From the NCBI GenBank assembly GCA_963847625.1, contig CAWKAR010000040.1:32898-96897 (forward strand): a DNA stretch of 64,000 nucleotides. The letters are read 5' to 3'. How positions within the stretch are numbered: the first letter of the stretch is position 1; the number at the start of each line of letters is the position of its first letter. This document shows, one piece after another, positions 33,001-51,000 of the stretch. The position numbers are program-made. Source of the DNA: a candidate division FCPU426 bacterium (GTDB lineage Bacteria; Oederibacteriota; Muellerivitia; Muellerivitales; Muellerivitaceae).

Positions 33001-36000
33001 AGCGGTCGTTTCCACGCCCTACTGGCACGCGAACGAGCTTCTCGCCGACGGGAGGGGCGTCCTGGTCCCCTGGAAAGACCCGGGAGCCATCGCCGCCGCC
33101 GTGAACGACCTCCTGTCCGACGACGTCAAAAGGCTCGCCATGCGCCGGCGCGCCGCCGACCTGGGAAAGGAAATGCTCTGGGGCGCGGTGGGGCGCCGTT
33201 ATTTGAAAAGTTTCGACCAGGCCCGCGCCGGGCACGCCGCCAGGCTCAAGTCCGTGTTCCAGGCCAGGACGCTCGTGGAGAGGCCCGCCGATTGGCCCGA
33301 AATCAATCTGGAGCACCTCCGGCTCATGACGGACGGGACCGGGTTGCTTCAGCACGCGGCCTTCAGCATCCCGCGCTACGAGGACGGCTACTGCCTGGAC
33401 GACAACGCCCGGGCCCTGCTCTTGATGACCCTGATTGACGACGCCGGCATTACCAACGGCGATAAAACGCGCGAGCTGGCCTCCCGTTACCTGGCCTTCG
33501 TGAACCACGCCTTCAACCCGGAGAAGGGGCGGTTCCGGAATTTCCTGCCCTACTCCCGGCAATGGGAAGAAGCATGCGGCTCGGAGGAGAGCCACGGGCG
33601 CGCCCTCTGGGCGCTGGGGAGCGTCGTGGGAAGGGCTTTTGACCCGGGGCGCTTGAGCTTGAGCAGCGGCCTTCTCCATTCGGCATTGCCCGCGGTGGAG
33701 GGCTTTTCCAGCCCGCGCGCCTGGGCTTTCACGCTCCTGGGAATCGACGAATACCTGCGCGCCTTCGAGGGCGACCGCGGCGTGCAGTCGGTGAGGAAAA
33801 CCATCGCGGAGCGGCTCCTGGGGCTTTACCAACGGACCCGGAAAGGCGACTGGCCCTGGTTCGAGGACAAGGTGACTTACTGCAACGCGCGGCTTTCCCA
33901 GGCGCTGATCGTCTCGGGAAGCTGGATGGAGGACAAAACCATGATCGAGGCCGGTTTGGAATCGCTCGCCTGGCTGGTTTCCATCCAGCTCTCGGAGGAC
34001 GGCGTTTTCGCCCCGGTCGGTTCGAACGGCTTTTACGCTAAGGGCGGGCCCAAAGCCGCCTTCGACCAGCAACCCGTGGAAGCCTGCGGAATGGTTTCGG
34101 CCTGCCTGGAGGCGCGCCGGGTGACGGGGGACGGCCAATGGATGGAACAGGCGCGCCGCGCCTTCAACTGGTTCCTGGGGGAAAACCAGCTCCAGCAACC
34201 CCTTTACGACGTGACGACCGGCGGGTGCTGCGACGGGCTTCATGCCGACCGCGTGAACGAGAACCAGGGCGCCGAATCGACGCTCTCCTTCCTGCTCGCG
34301 CTATGCGAGATGCAATCCGCCGACGGCACCGGCGGGGCGAAACCATTAAAACGGGGGGCAAGGCGATGATTTCAAATAAAGGTTACGAGGTTTTATTCAA
34401 CCGGCACGCGAAAAACCCGGTCTTAACGGCGGCAGACTGGCCCTATCCGGTCCACACGATCTTCAATCCCGGCGTGACGCGGCTCCAGGACGGCACGACG
34501 TTATTGCTCTGCAGGGCCGAGGACCGCCGGGGGCACTCGCACTTCTGCGCGGCCCGCTCGAAAAACGGGATCGACGGATGGGTCATCGACGAAAAACCCA
34601 CCCTCCTCCCGGACCCGAAGGGCCACCCGGAGGAACTCTGGGGCATCGAGGACCCGCGCATCACTTTTCTCAAGGAAACCGGCAATTACCTGGTGGCCTA
34701 CACCGCTTTCAGCAAGGGGGGGCCGGGCGTGGCCCTGGCGGAAACCTCGGATTTCCGGTCCTTCAAACGCTATGGGTTGGTGATGCAGCCCGATGACAAG
34801 GACGCGGCCCTGCTTCCACGACGCATCGACGGCAGTTTCGCGCTCATTCACCGCCCCATGACCGAATCGGGGGCCCATATCTGGATTTCCTATTCGCCCG
34901 ACCTCCAAAACTGGGGGAACCACAAGCTTGCCCTGCCGGCGCGGCGGGGTTCCTGGTGGGACGCGAACAAGGTCGGGCTTGCGGGGCCCCTGATTGAGAC
35001 GCCCCGGGGGTGGCTGATGCTTTATCACGGCGTCCGGCAAACGGCTTCGGGATGCATTTACCGCCTGGGCGCGGCGCTCATGGCCCTGGATAAGCCGGAA
35101 CAATGCCTGCTCAGGGGCGATTCGTGGATTTTCAGCCCCGAGGCCCCCTACGAGCACGAGGGCGACGTGGGCAACGTGGTATTTCCCTGCGGCCAGACCA
35201 TCGGCGAGGATGGGGACACGATCAATCTTTATTACGGCGCGGCGGACACCAGCATCGCGCTGGCCACCGGATCCATATGCCGGATTTTATGCTGGCTGGA
35301 TGAACATGGAAGGGATACCGCCTAATGGGAAGCCGCCATGCGGTAATAGGGTGTCGATAGGCGGACCCGGCTAAAAGCCAACTTTGAATAATTATGAATT
35401 TTTAATTCTAAATAAATGGGTAGATTAAAGGCGGATTGAAGATTACTGATCTTTTAATTAGTTATTTTTCAATATTCAAAACAAGCCCCAATGGTTTATA
35501 GACCCCAACATTAAACCCAGCAACACACCTGCACTGCGTAATAGGCAGAACTCAAAACTAACATATTTTGGGGGTGTATTTTCCCTTCATCCGGCAAAAA
35601 ACACCATCCGGGATGTGCCTGGGAAGGGACGAAACAACCGTTTTGGGCAAGTCTGTTAGCCCAAATGAAAAATTTGGGCTAGGCGACTCTGTGGTCTTCG
35701 CGAACAATAGTGCGAAAGCCCCCGTCCTGGCTGGAACGCCAATCTTTCGGCGGTTTGATCGACTTCAGGCGGTCGAGCTGGCCAATGTTGCTCAGCCGCT
35801 GATAGATGAGCTGCCAGGCGCACGGCCGTTCCGGACTGACTTCGCACCGGTCTTCCCGCGAGCCGCCGCAGGGGCCGTTCATCATATGTTTGGCGCAACG
35901 GGTCACCGGGCAGACCCCGCCATACTGGTGCAAAACGCAGGCGCCGCAGGCGGCGCATTTTTCGGCCCAGACGCCCCGTTCCTCGAGGATGCCGATGAAT

Positions 36001-48000: not shown

Positions 48001-51000
48001 GATTGACGGACATGCACAACAGGCCTTTTGTGCAGTCCTGAACGCATGAAAAACATCCCATACAGTCAAAGAACAGGGCATTGACGTCGCTGAGATCGCG
48101 GATATAATCCGCTTCCTGCCGGTAGCGATCGTAAACACAGGCCTTCTTGACACAGTTATGACAGCGCGCGCAATCTTCACGCCAATCCACCATGCCATAT
48201 TTGCCGATACGGGGTCCTTTGGGCAGGACCGGCTTTGTCTTGATGTGATATTTGTCTGGCATTGTAATTTCTTGTTAGGCGACAGCCGCGGCGATAATTT
48301 CGGGCGCAGGGCACCCGTCGTGGCCGCAATGGATGTGGAGGCCTCTCAAACCTTTCATTCCTTTAAGTTTTCGAATTGTCTCAACACAGATTTTCATGCC
48401 CTCTTTACCCTGGGCCGCTTCATCGCCGGCCTTTTTCAGCCTTTCAATCACTTCGTCGGGAATGGAATAATCCGTATACGTCTTCCGCAGCCTTTCCGCT
48501 TCCACGGCGCTGTCCAGGGCCAAAACACCCGCAAGAACCGCTGACTTCGAGCTGATTCCTTCCCGCGCCGCCGCCTCAAGCCATCGGCCGAAGATTTCCA
48601 CATCGAATACGGCGCTGGTCTGGATGAATTTGGCTCCCGCATCGACCTTCTTGCGCATCCGGAGCATATTCAACTCCACCGGCGTTAGAAATGGGTTCGC
48701 GGCCGCCCCGACCAGCATGGAGAAGGGGCCTTCCATTTTCGTTCCGTCCGCCAGCAGGCCCTTCTCCGACATGTTCGTCGCCAGTTCGATGAACTGGATC
48801 GAATCAATATCGTAAACGTTGGCGGATCCCGGGGAGGAGGTGAGCGTCTGATGGTACCCGGAAAGGCAGAGGAGGTTTCTAATCCCCAGACTCGCGGCCC
48901 CAAGCAGATCGGATTGAATCGCGATTCGATTTCTGTCGCGCGTCACCATATGACAGACCGGCTCAGCGCCGGCTTTTAGGACCGCAACCGATGCCGCGAT
49001 GGACGACAAACCGACGGCGTGACAGTTGTCGGAAACATTGACCGCGGTCAATCCGTTCCCGAGGCCCTTCACGGCGTCTTCAACGGCCCGGCCGTCGGAA
49101 ACAGCTTTCGGCCGGTATTCCGCGGTGACGATGAAAGTCCCGGATGCCAGTGCCTTTGCGAATTTTCCGTCGACATTCATAGTTTGTTTTTCTCCTGCAG
49201 CGATAGTTTTTTCACCCGGGTCAAGAAATCCCTGATTTCTCCGACTCCCTGTTCGATATCCCCCTCCTTCAGCGTGATGACCGACATCCGTCCTTTCCCC
49301 AATCCGATTTCTTCCAGCAGCGATTCAACGGCTTTGGACCTTTTTTGCGCCCGCAGGTTCCCTTCCAGGTGCCGGCACTCGTTATTCGGGCATGTCACGA
49401 TCACCGCGCCGTCCGCGCCGGTTTCAAAGGCCTTCATCAGATAGGGGATGTCTATCTTGCCGGAACAGGGCAGGCTTATCACCCGGACATCGACTCCGTC
49501 CCTATGACTTATCTCTTTGACCAACTGATCCGGCTCGATGCTGTTTGAGCAGGAAAAAACATAAATATTTGTATTTCGATCATTCATAGGAATCATACCG
49601 CCGAGGGAACGGCGTCGGGTTTCTTCAATAACTCGATGAAGCGGGTGACGGCCGGGTTCCCCGGCGCCCCGCGGCGGCGGAGGATGGCCAGCGAGAGCCC
49701 CTTCACCCGCACCTCGAGGGACTCGTATCGGCGAAGAATATCCCGGCATCCGTGATAAAAAAATTCGCCCTCGGAAGTCAGCCGCCAGGGCCGACAACTG
49801 CGGTCGATGAGAGGGAGCCCCAACCTTTCCTCCGGGGCCTGGACCGTCTGGCTGGCCGCGGGCTGGCTGACGCTGTGAGCCTGGGCACTGTCGGAGAAAC
49901 TGCGAAACCGGATGATGCCGCAGAAGAGTTTTAGGGCTTCGATATGCACGTGAAATTTTAGTGAATTAAAACAGCTTATGTCAATTGATTAAACATAAGC
50001 GCGGCTTATGTAATGCAGCACAGGAAGCCTTCATCCGGTACTCTAAGAACTTATTCGTACCGCAGGGCTTCGATGGGAAGTACAAGGAGGGAAACTTTCC
50101 GGGCCGGCTAAAAACCGAACAAGATGCCGACCTTGGCGGAAAACAGAAAGGTCATGACAACCAAGGCCGGCGCCACGACGCTACCCAACCGGCTTTTATA
50201 GCGAAACGATAACCGGGGATAGCCATAAAATGCTTTCGAATCCCCCTGTCCCTGGGCCCAAAAGCTAATCCATTGAATCAACCATTAACGTCCCTCGAAA
50301 ACAACCCAAAATAAAAACGCCCCTTCCCCCAAAAGGGGAAAGGGGCGTCAAGGCTAAAAGGGTAACCCTGTGCCGGAGAAGCCGGGGTCCTGCGTCAGAT
50401 TTTCACAGCTTCCCAACGCTCAAGCGTGTAGACCTTATTCGCCATCAGTTTGGCCAGGAAACGGGGGAATTTCATCCCAATCATACGGAGCCGCACTTTT
50501 TCATGCATCATTTCCGCCGTCATCTTGGGGTCGGTAAAGGCCCCCATCTGGAAGCAGTTGCGGCAGTAAGAGTTGGAGGAACCGCCGTTCCTTTCGGTCC
50601 CTTTTTCCAATTCGCTCAGGACCGGAGCGGCGCAGCTTTGACAAACAGTTTTTACAAACTTCATGAGACTACCGTTTTTTCCACGACGGCTTCGGTGCCC
50701 TCCACCGGCAAACCCGCCTTGTGCCATTCCCGCAGGCCGCCCGAGTAATTCAGCGCCTTTAGCCCGTGGTCCTCAAGGGCCTTCGTCGCGAAAAAACTGT
50801 CCAACTTGCCAAAACGTTCGCCGTAGAGGATAAAGGACTTCGCTTTCCCGTATTTTCCTGCCACTTCCTTGGAAAAATCCTCCAGGTCCTCCGTCAAGGG
50901 GTGGCTTTCCGATCCCTTGATGTGGAGCTTCTTGAATTCGCCCTTGGGGAGGATGTTGAGAACGACCACCTGGTCTTTTGTCAGGCTTACCAGCAGTTCT

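Follow-up and report, generated by a model that had tools for sequence, protein, structure and literature searches.

A ten-gene operon that may power a three-piece glutamate synthase through Hdr-type proteins and an altered MetF

In the window, a 64,000-nt stretch of contig CAWKAR010000040.1 from a candidate division FCPU426 bacterium, an operon has been found which we are inclined, by a modest margin of belief, to read as a glutamate synthase (GOGAT) in three pieces, powered via an Hdr-type protein through MetV, an altered MetF and the small adaptor MvhD1. Glutamate synthases serve to incorporate nitrogen into amino acids, and the known ones run on NAD(P)H, ferredoxin or F420H2. A three-piece GOGAT fed by HdrA through a folate-blind MetF is most likely undescribed, and no paper describing the arrangement was found in our literature searches. 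If the wiring holds, it would represent a new low-energy way to power nitrogen assimilation, and we know of no earlier case in which MetVF has been put to new use as a relay for electrons. Many anaerobes may rely on the Hdr-linked family for their main GOGAT, 21 of 50 carriers showing no match to the canonical large GltB. The operon also offers a test bed for the role of HdrBC in bacteria that lack coenzymes M and B. As regards annotation, the presence of its metF-metV-hdrABC-mvhD set is no ground for inferring acetogenesis.

Gene content, order and distribution

Ten ORFs, all on the minus strand within 35679..49596, were obtained by ORF calling and Pfam searches of the window (Table 1), and the ten coupled genes on one strand described in an earlier note on this DNA are borne out by both ORFs and domain content. 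The latter comprises FlpD (twice), MTHFR, Glu_synthase (twice, E 3e-12 and 9e-89), GATase_6 with GXGXG (638-811), Fer4 in HdrC, CCG (twice) and DUF5981, together with Fer4_20 and four Pyr_redox_2 stretches in the HdrA. From mvhD1 to metV the junctions measure, in order, -4, +12, -80, -4, -4, -4, -8, -26 and -4 nt, the -80 nt being counted from the first ATG of gltB2 and becoming smaller with a later start; the true start probably lies downstream of that ATG.

Table 1. Features of the operon and its upstream region, in window positions
Feature	Position	Strand	Basis or remark
Terminator-like hairpin with T-run, closing upstream genes	50316..50349	-	15 pairs, 10 GC; consensus match only
LysR-box-like inverted repeat (perfect, 8 bp), next to the putative promoter on its upstream side	49993..50011	.	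Direct sequence reading
Sigma-70-like putative promoter	49955..49984	-	11/12 matches; ends 6 nt before GTG of LysR remnant
Mini-LysR, 118 aa	49593..49949	-	HTH_1; 4-nt overlap with mvhD1
MvhD1, divergent [2Fe-2S] adaptor	49177..49596	-	FlpD; model places it on N-terminal ferredoxin domain of GltX
MetF* (the altered MetF of the text), MetV-associated MetF type; Glu28 kept, Asp120 to Tyr, Gln183 to Ser	48275..49180	-	Alignments, tree
GltX, degenerate copy of synthase subunit	46868..48262	-	Pairwise alignment to GltB2; fold matches
GltB2, ferredoxin domain, FMN synthase barrel and four-Cys cluster motif	45322..46947	-	Match to A. brasilense GltS
GltB1+3, class II glutamine amidotransferase fused to GXGXG beta-helix	42662..45325	-	Pfam, invariant residues
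HdrC	42111..42665	-	Profile matches (Fer4)
HdrB, both CCG cluster sites intact	41242..42114	-	Pfam; Cys conservation
HdrA, Moorella/HdrL type, 1493 aa	36768..41249	-	Domains, E/K pairs, comparison with accessible part of PMC9430772
MvhD2, canonical type	36347..36793	-	FlpD E 2e-49; directly after hdrA in 20/20
MetV, all 13 Cys kept	35679..36350	-	DUF5981

The gene order is kept across many phyla, far beyond chance, and is common to many anaerobic bacteria. Adjacent pairs were retained in 73/74, 79/79, 76/76, 66/69, 63/64, 62/62 and 60/60 cases among 80 genome loci, and in 67/67, 74/74, 74/74, 50/54, 38/40, 36/36 and 31/31 among 80 metagenome loci, where the denominators are the loci whose DNA reached far enough. 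The two sets share some loci, and related loci are not independent of each other; hdrA-mvhD-metV came next in all 20 downstream regions fetched. The order is circularly permuted in loci L028, L080, L213, L230 and others, with every other joint retained, and in L224 hdrA directly follows the trio, without hdrCB between them. At least 545 genome stretches lie near the operon type of the window, and of the 401 genomes sampled in one phylum of sulfate reducers and syntrophs, 106 gave a gltX match. As the earlier note had claimed, the operon seems absent from relatives of the host, gltX being found in none of the 30 searched.

Three further observations of that note on the host genome were likewise confirmed, namely a GltB of the ordinary kind (1509 aa), accompanied by GltD on contig C60, an ACS cluster on C13 where CODH/ACS genes had been placed, and the missing formyl-THF synthetase, Fhs giving no match in this genome (93.9% complete). 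An ordinary MetF on C38, which exists beside that of the operon, had been overlooked, as had the missing Asp120 of the operon's own MetF. The ordinary GltBD, the position of glnA on a contig other than that of the operon and the canonical GltB of 29/50 carriers count against the reading preferred here.

The glutamate synthase trio

The class II glutaminase set is present in GltB1+3 (Cys1, Arg, HQR-x-x-T loop, HNG oxyanion hole and Asp, whose roles we take from general knowledge of the class), and C35, R61, R235, T238, N261, G262 and D286 are invariant in 59/59 close and 36/36 distant homologs; Cys35 is preceded by a 34-residue leader, which would be processed off. GltB2 matches residues 857-1170 of A. 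brasilense GltS with E 4e-48, nine active-site positions being invariant in 68/68 close and 38/38 distant homologs, and it has E886, K931, Q934, K937, R957, E978 and K999 (A. brasilense numbering, counted along the 2vdc alignment), presumably the residues for 2-oxoglutarate and coupling. GltX and GltB2 show 27% identity across 495 alignment columns; in pairwise alignment GltX retains the ferredoxin domain and the C-terminal Cys cluster and has lost the 2-oxoglutarate motifs. Its fold model, a weak one (pLDDT 59), matches GltS alpha subunits best. This degenerate barrel, which gives no Glu_syn_central match, is a likely candidate to replace the GltS central domain and act as the electron entry; the GXGXG beta-helix is located in GltB1+3. 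Judged by sequence, the trio looks catalytically complete, every glutaminase and 2-oxoglutarate-site residue checked being kept, and it is likely to be a true GOGAT, because its relatives adjoin glnA, amtB, glnK and nrpR and carry interchangeable upstream redox modules.

In fact, the trio is intact in 40 more distant loci, where the upstream module varies: mvhD-metV-metF in 18, an FAD-linked oxidase in 7, mvhD alone in 4, mvhD with a downstream hdrA-mvhD-metV-metF in 4, mvhD-metV in 3 and other modules in 4. P0147 and P0154 carry the FAD oxidase as a fusion with GltX, and in P0254 the oxidase, synthase and GXGXG domains form a single chain. At least one of glnA, amtB, glnK, nrpR and glnE occurs in 21/40 distant loci, 16/80 close loci and 3/20 downstream regions. 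None of these five genes was seen in 64/80 close loci, within the DNA fetched, and a strict sigma-54 motif upstream was not enriched (4/74 vs 3/74), two observations that speak against the preferred explanation.

The glutaminase, FMN synthase and GXGXG domains and the checked catalytic residues are those of A. brasilense GltBD (1ea0, 2vdc, 6s6s; NADPH) and of ferredoxin-GltS (1llw), but the GOGAT of the operon consists of three chains, with the glutaminase fused to GXGXG and no free GltD; moreover, both barrels carry a ferredoxin domain and a four-Cys motif, and MvhD seems to be the point at which electrons enter. Archaeal-type split glutamate synthases have separate subunits, a ferredoxin-fused FMN subunit and plug-in electron-input subunits. 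In comparison with these, made here by subunit layout, the operon adds GltX and a fused amidotransferase-GXGXG chain, and the input is MvhD/MetV/Hdr or an FAD oxidase. Split enzymes, including F420-dependent ones, are mentioned in PMC9012536. GltX may be a second, inactive barrel comparable to the GltS central domain treated in PMC8097209.

The altered MetF and the proposed electron path

The MetF of the operon scores 94 bits against PF02219 (cut-off 24), with the MTHFR barrel domain present, and reaches no NCBIfam equivalog cut-off; an Asp-bearing MetF of the MetV type misses them too. The catalytic Glu28 (E21 here) is kept in 74/75 homologs. The Asp120 position (Y109), one of two that anchor the pterin, is occupied by Tyr in 62, Phe in 12 and His in 1 of the 75, with Asp in none of them, in none of the 72 metagenome rows read and in 31/31 control MetFs; at the Gln183 position (S189), the other pterin anchor, there are His in 39, Gln in 26, Ser in 6 and other residues in 4, and Gln in 31/31 controls. 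These proteins form a single clade with 100/100 support on a long branch, sister to Asp-bearing MetFs from other trio loci (98/89). In distant trio loci the Asp is kept by 21/25 MetFs, so that in those cousins the GOGAT could plausibly be fed by methyl-THF. These substitutions suggest that the folate site of the altered MetF seems lost; folate or other chemistry may remain, because Glu28 is found in 74/75 and Gln183 in 26/75. All 13 Cys of MetV are present in 19/19 close homologs.

The first half of HdrA bears a GltD domain inside an inserted ferredoxin, and the second an N-terminal domain and a C-terminal ferredoxin. Of the Glu/Lys pairs associated with bifurcation, E697 and K750 are found in 48/48 sequences, E1199 and K1240 in 46/48, and the second Rossmann strand is followed by Leu-Glu, not Arg-Arg, in 45/48, which we take to be an NADH-type motif. 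This GltD-bearing double HdrA is not new and corresponds to the known Moorella type: in the accessible part of PMC9430772, the M. thermoacetica HdrA, which oxidises NADH, is likewise about 1490 aa long, carries a GltD insert and two TrxR-like domains, and has its E/K pairs under almost identical residue numbers. All genes of the type IV MTHFR (HdrC, HdrB, HdrA, MvhD, MetV, MetF) are present in the cluster, with the hdrC-hdrB-hdrA-mvhD-metV order of Moorella thermoacetica and Sporomusa ovata (PMC8760232 and PMC9430772, accessible parts). Nevertheless, MetF has been moved and is without Asp120 and mostly without Gln183, the cluster has gained a second MvhD together with three GOGAT genes, and ACS is not seen in most carriers. 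HdrL of Desulfobacterium autotrophicum (PMC2702500) and type III HdrA (PMC12054007) are linked, in the parts of these papers available, to Dsr, Fdh or Mvh genes and not to genes for glutamate synthase large subunits.

MvhD1, with four Cys invariant in 66 rows, gave a complex model with GltX at 0.64 (best of three controls, 0.00), with at least 96% contact agreement among runs and a partner pLDDT of at least 86, placing GltX 23-29, 51-63 and 83-92 against MvhD1 P43-K47. The mark applied is passed by 116/157 solved and 2/215 mismatched pairs, and this model, with custom alignments and ligands, lies outside its calibration; it may pass through likeness to the solved contact between MvhD and the HdrA ferredoxin. 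The modelling supports docking of MvhD1 on the GltX ferredoxin domain.

According to the preferred explanation, electrons, with NADH as presumed donor, would enter HdrA at its GltD insert and go out through MvhD2 to MetV, from which MetV and the altered MetF, without folate turnover, would form a putative flavin/iron-sulfur relay or shuttle to MvhD1. The latter, docked on GltX as modelled, would pass them on to the GOGAT, with GltX, a disarmed copy of GltB2, occupying the position of the central domain and taking up electrons at its ferredoxin domain; GltB1+3 would hydrolyse glutamine, and GltB2 would convert the ammonia and 2-oxoglutarate into glutamate on FMN. HdrBC would either add thiol electrons (confurcation) or be an optional side arm. 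The ten Cys of HdrB are invariant in 57/57, a full conservation that a plain wire leaves unexplained, and thiol coupling at HdrBC is possible. A bolder proposal, doubtful as it stands, would be an electron-confurcating GOGAT, in which HdrA pools electrons that NADH delivers to the GltD arm with those that a thiol pair delivers to the HdrBC arm and passes them on to MvhD2, MetV and the altered MetF, MvhD1 and GOGAT, so that nitrogen assimilation would cost half as much NADH; Asp-bearing mvhD-metV-metF-trio cousins would be driven by methyl-THF and FAD-oxidase-fused ones by organic acids, as a family of GOGATs living on electrons too weak for NAD+ reduction.

Alternative readings and upstream signals

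The earlier note had linked the trio to Hdr, MvhD and MetV, a wiring that probably holds in view of the conserved interleaving, the circular permutation and the dedicated MvhD with its docking model. The same features, together with the coupling of the genes and the fusion of the input module to GltX elsewhere, argue against a real GOGAT merely co-transcribed with an Hdr-type module and fed by free ferredoxin or another carrier outside any joint complex, which we judge improbable. To the same low degree we credit a MetF that still works, either in Moorella-type methylene-THF reduction with the GOGAT coupled or in methyl-THF oxidation splitting electrons between NAD+ and GOGAT. It would suit Glu28 (74/75), the intact MetV, the six Moorella subunit types, the Asp of 21/25 distant-locus MetFs and the ACS of this genome. 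It meets the loss, in the whole clade, of Asp120, termed invariant and catalytically essential in PMC9900621. This replacement by Tyr, Phe or His, a Gln183 mostly gone, CdhC matched in only 19/50 carriers and not in 31/50 (MAGs being incomplete) and the lack of Fhs matches in this genome also leave the note's Wood-Ljungdahl methylene-THF reductase unsupported; at least two MTHFR matches, some of them pieces of one gene, were found in 49/50 carriers. The 2-oxoglutarate/glutamine potential is more positive than that of methylene-THF, which places GOGAT, as an acceptor beside the latter, on the wrong, high-potential side. Nor is GOGAT supported as the second partner of the Moorella-type MetFV-HdrABC-MvhD: in the literature the Moorella cluster has six genes and no GOGAT, and its missing partner is expected to be an acceptor of low potential.

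Least probable is a trio working in reverse or on another amine, with glutamate oxidation feeding Hdr or a reaction like that of N-methylglutamate synthase linking methylamine to the C1 pool. N-Methylglutamate synthase (MgsABC) combines the same three types of domain, the altered MetF could accept a new substrate and canonical GltB also occurs in 29/50 carriers; the invariant glutaminase site would, however, be needless for glutamate oxidation. MgsABC neighbours are the type III GlnA-like GmaS and sarcosine-oxidase-like Mgd genes, a neighbourhood unlike the one seen here: the GlnA neighbours, accompanied by AmtB, P-II, NrpR and GlnE, passed the type I cut-off and failed type III in 3/3 tested, and no sarcosine-oxidase-like (Mgd-like) family was found among the recurring neighbours.

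Upstream of the operon, the terminator-like hairpin belongs to a class whose total count is not above shuffles. It is by position only that the putative promoter is argued, since five such sites stand against 5.0 expected in the region. The inverted repeat, which resembles a LysR box, has a third half-site at about 49974-49981, and the pattern recurs upstream in 3/75 loci, the window counted. An eleventh coupled ORF precedes the ten of the earlier note and encodes a LysR protein with the effector domain deleted, its HTH and linker helix being joined in frame to the C-terminal tail; it is 53% identical to residues 1-88 of a full LysR divergent to the operon in L037.

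Gene order and the Hdr module

The ten genes listed in the earlier note, together with their domain content, were confirmed as ten minus-strand ORFs, with all nine junctions between them overlapping or almost touching. Read along the operon, the genes are mvhD1, metF, gltX, gltB2, gltB1+3, hdrC, hdrB, hdrA, mvhD2 and metV. A scan of species genomes for GltX, the degenerate copy of the synthase subunit, gave at least 545 related stretches, of which the best 80 were analysed (Planctomycetota, Verrucomicrobiota, Syntrophales/Smithella/Syntrophorhabdus, Chloroflexota, Ignavibacteria and others). 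Among these best 80 of at least 545, neighbouring gene pairs were conserved in 60/60 to 79/79 testable cases, exceptions being confined to three joints: mvhD1-metF (1/74, the in-frame metF-gltX fusion of locus L060), gltB2-gltB1+3 (3/69) and gltB1+3-hdrC (1/64). In addition, hdrA, mvhD2 and metV came next in order in 20/20 downstream regions, picked for long contigs from the 50 genomes carrying the operon. Several loci, including L028, L080, L213 and L230, are circularly permuted, gltB1+3 being first and gltB2 last, which places metV next to mvhD1-metF and brings back the hdrCBA-mvhD-metV-(mvhD)-metF order of Moorella. In L224, hdrA lies immediately behind the trio (gltX, gltB2, gltB1+3), suggesting that loss of HdrBC is possible.

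The L060 ORF may be a natural fusion or the result of a lost stop codon. The extra Glu_synthase-domain gene of L020 is also found in L037, L068 and L079 and is accompanied by a 127-aa protein that matches no Pfam family; L165 and L167 carry a similar gene and a GltD-like one behind metV.

Positions of the features discussed (window positions unless a locus or contig is named)
Feature	Position	Strand	Remarks
Ten-gene operon	35679-49596	-	mvhD1 to metV
Mini-LysR (eleventh ORF)	49593-49949	-	HTH and C-terminal tail kept, effector domain lost in frame; 4-nt overlap with mvhD1
Sigma-70-like promoter and inverted repeat	49955-50011		ahead of mini-LysR
IS3-family transposase	30421-31251	-	~4.4 kb downstream of metV, past a glycosyltransferase and a GH130 gene
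2004-aa protein	51941-57955	-	C-terminal FlgD Ig-like domain; strong GC/AT skew
Second strongly skewed stretch	10000-15000		skew at ~10-14 kb
ACS/CODH cluster	G000 (window's genome) C13:13261-24335		RACE-like Fe-S protein, AcsC, AcsD, AcsB, CooS, two CooC (by sequence look)
metF*-gltX single ORF	L060:9083-11392		770 aa
Extra Glu_synthase-domain gene	L020:5743-7979		547 aa; upstream, opposite strand

The Hdr part is of the known Moorella type. The window HdrA has 1493 aa with E697/K750 and E1199/K1240, as against 1487 aa, a GltD insert, E696/K750 and E1204/K1246 in M. thermoacetica (excerpts of PMC9430772), and its two pairs are kept in 48/48 and 46/48 homologs, respectively, with an NADH-type motif in 45/48. 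The ten cluster Cys of HdrB are kept in 57/57. The GltD-bearing HdrA was rejected as a novelty, being already published.

The probable glutamate-synthase trio and the altered MetF

Most probably, the trio is a genuine glutamate synthase (GOGAT). In GltB1+3, Cys35 stands within a CGVVG motif preceded by a short leader and, like R61, R235, T238, N261, G262 and D286, is invariant in 59/59 close and 36/36 distant homologs. GltB2 aligns with residues 857-1170 of A. brasilense GltS (E 4e-48), and nine of its positions are invariant in 68/68 and 38/38 homologs; they include the ones numbered E886, Q934, K937, R957 and E978. GltX is a paralog of GltB2 (27% identity) which retains the Fe-S motifs and has lost the substrate motifs, its degenerate barrel resembling the second, inactive barrel that forms the central domain of GltS (excerpts of PMC8097209). 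We infer that GltX replaces this domain; its single-chain fold is confident only for the barrel (~165-375) and weak outside it, and Foldseek did not separate the central from the synthase domain of GltS as the better match. In L128-L130, L134, L142 and L143, gltX and gltB2 form one chain of ~1000 aa, just as the central and synthase domains are joined in GltB.

MvhD1 is a divergent MvhD retaining all four cluster Cys. Its complex with GltX, predicted from 66 and 79 alignment rows, respectively, with Fe-S ligands, scored 0.64 against 0.00 for the best of three controls, with contact agreement between runs of at least 96% and partner pLDDT of at least 86. The same mark was reached by 116/157 solved complexes and 2/215 mismatched pairs, a calibration outside which the present alignments and ligands fall. 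The modelled interface, in which the MvhD1 loop P43-C44-S45-G46-K47 sits against the ferredoxin domain at the N-terminus of GltX, supports binding of the two proteins, though the score may be owing to likeness to the solved MvhD-HdrA ferredoxin-domain contact.

The GltX profile matched 106/401 genomes sampled from the phylum of genome G049, only 5 of the 106 belonging to the window's close group. Forty loci around such matches, picked for long contigs, all keep the trio together and differ in the preceding genes. In 18 loci these are mvhD-metV-metF, and in 7 an FAD-linked oxidase carrying an Fe-S domain; 4 loci have only mvhD there, 4 more have mvhD plus an hdrA-mvhD-metV-metF set behind the trio, 3 have mvhD-metV, and the last 4 have other Hdr-bearing layouts. 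The oxidase, GlcD-like and standing before gltX in place of mvhD-metVF, occurs in L135-L137, L145-L147 and L158, and is fused to GltX in proteins P0147 and P0154. P0254 (3016 aa) unites FAD oxidase, GltX, synthase and GXGXG domains, which may have been joined in assembly or gene calling.

At least one of glnA, amtB, glnK, nrpR and glnE is present in 21/40 of these distant loci, 16/80 close loci and 3/20 downstream regions, and the three neighbouring GlnA tested were all type I; most close loci, and the window, have no such neighbour. These neighbourhoods argue for a real GOGAT, whereas the loci without them, and the canonical GltB also found in 29/50 carriers, argue against it.

In the operon's MetF, MetF*, the Asp of the RGD/TGD motif (E. 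coli Asp120) is replaced by Tyr109. Among 75 homologs this position holds Tyr in 62, Phe in 12 and His in 1; in a metagenome set, pattern reading of 72 rows gave Tyr in 71 and His in 1, with one more Tyr by eye and one row truncated. The 31 other MetFs of the same genomes, some of them MetV-type, all have Asp120 as well as Gln183; in the MetF* clade the latter position is His in 39, Gln in 26, Ser in 6 and other in 4. Asp120 is described as invariant and catalytically essential, and as pterin anchor together with Gln183 (excerpts of PMC9900621). In a tree of 39 rows, a subset of those available, MetF* forms a single clade (100/100, branch 0.65), with Asp-bearing MetFs from other loci of the trio as its sister (98/89); for MetF*, ESM Atlas returned generic MTHFR clusters only. 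The 13 Cys of MetV are all kept (19/19) and MetF* retains Glu28, which speaks for some continuing function of the pair. In the distant loci, Asp is kept in 21/25 MetFs. It is also gone from trio-linked MetFs of L131, L141 (Glu) and L132 (unclear alignment); the folate site may possibly have decayed repeatedly.

Proposed electron route and its competitors

We lean, with slightly better than even confidence, towards a wiring NADH -> HdrA -> MvhD2 -> MetV-MetF* -> MvhD1 -> GOGAT. NADH would be oxidised at the GltD insert, and electrons would travel to MetV by way of HdrA, the ferredoxin at the HdrA C-terminus and MvhD2; MetV-MetF* would store two of them and hand them to MvhD1, from which they would reach FMN through GltX and GltB2. 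In S. ovata, MetV-MetF is a loosely attached 140-kDa unit (excerpts of PMC9430772), and in solved Hdr the arms of high, middle and low potential are HdrBC, MvhD and the inserted ferredoxin, respectively (excerpts of PMC9012536). This low arm is capped by GltD in the operon HdrA. Confurcation, the same layout run in reverse, would bring NADH and thiol electrons together at about -230 mV for use by GOGAT. The potentials concerned are -320 mV for NADH, -145 mV for the thiol couple (CoM/CoB) and near -130 mV or higher for the GOGAT substrate couple. We regard confurcation as unlikely; HdrBC can apparently be lost (L224).

The earlier note had seen here the MetFV-HdrABC-MvhD of the Wood-Ljungdahl pathway with GOGAT as second redox partner. 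For that coupling MetF would have to be active and the partner of low potential, whereas GOGAT is a high-potential one and MetF* is devoid of Asp120, which leaves the folate-coupled form quite improbable for this operon. Nor could the tie to the pathway be upheld: the operon does not track it, as CdhC was detected in only 19/50 carriers, whose genomes are incomplete. Mere co-transcription of the trio with the Hdr module is, in our estimate, just as hard to credit, and catabolic or methylamine chemistry harder still.

In the 18 loci with mvhD-metV-metF-gltX-gltB2-gltB1+3 (L120-L125, L127-L130, L133, L138, L142, L144, L148, L150, L153, L154), Asp120 and Gln183 of MetF are intact, no hdr gene is near and the set is often behind glnA. 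They are candidates for a methyl-THF-driven glutamate synthase; with methyl-THF at -200 mV (excerpts of PMC9430772), direct driving of GOGAT in these Asp-bearing cousins is attractive and could occur.

The components themselves are known; new, as far as the literature found goes, are the layout of the enzyme, its exchangeable inputs and the apparently folate-blind MetF. Neither the operon nor an MvhD-fed glutamate synthase was met in a search covering sources other than subscription HdrA-module reviews, supplements and Mock et al. 2014, and excerpts of PMC6085437, PMC5736913, PMC7325909, PMC8760232, PMC9430772, PMC9012536, PMC2702500, PMC9900621, PMC8097209 and PMC12054007 do not describe the operon.

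Upstream region and host genome

The mini-LysR reads into the operon and is coupled to mvhD1; transcription of the operon may now begin, leaderless, at the mini-LysR promoter. In L026, L037, L068, L227 and L248 a full-length LysR is divergent to the operon, a layout we take to be GltC-like. Sigma-54 control was rejected, the strict motif occurring in 4/74 upstream regions versus 3/74 controls, and the loose one in 6/75 versus 0/74 but not in the window. NrpR, GlnR, NtrC and NifA consensus patterns showed no enrichment upstream of the operon loci.

The genome also holds an ordinary MetF (contig C38), an ordinary GltBD (C60) and the ACS cluster on C13, without metFV beside it. A link of the operon to that cluster was rejected, since metF and metV are absent there and a single hdrA/metV set exists genome-wide. 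The genome gave no Fhs match. The gene gltX is absent from 30/30 relatives searched, which fits horizontal gain of the operon, and the IS3-family transposase may mark the region's mobility. The skew at ~10-14 kb points to a further repeat protein of low complexity.
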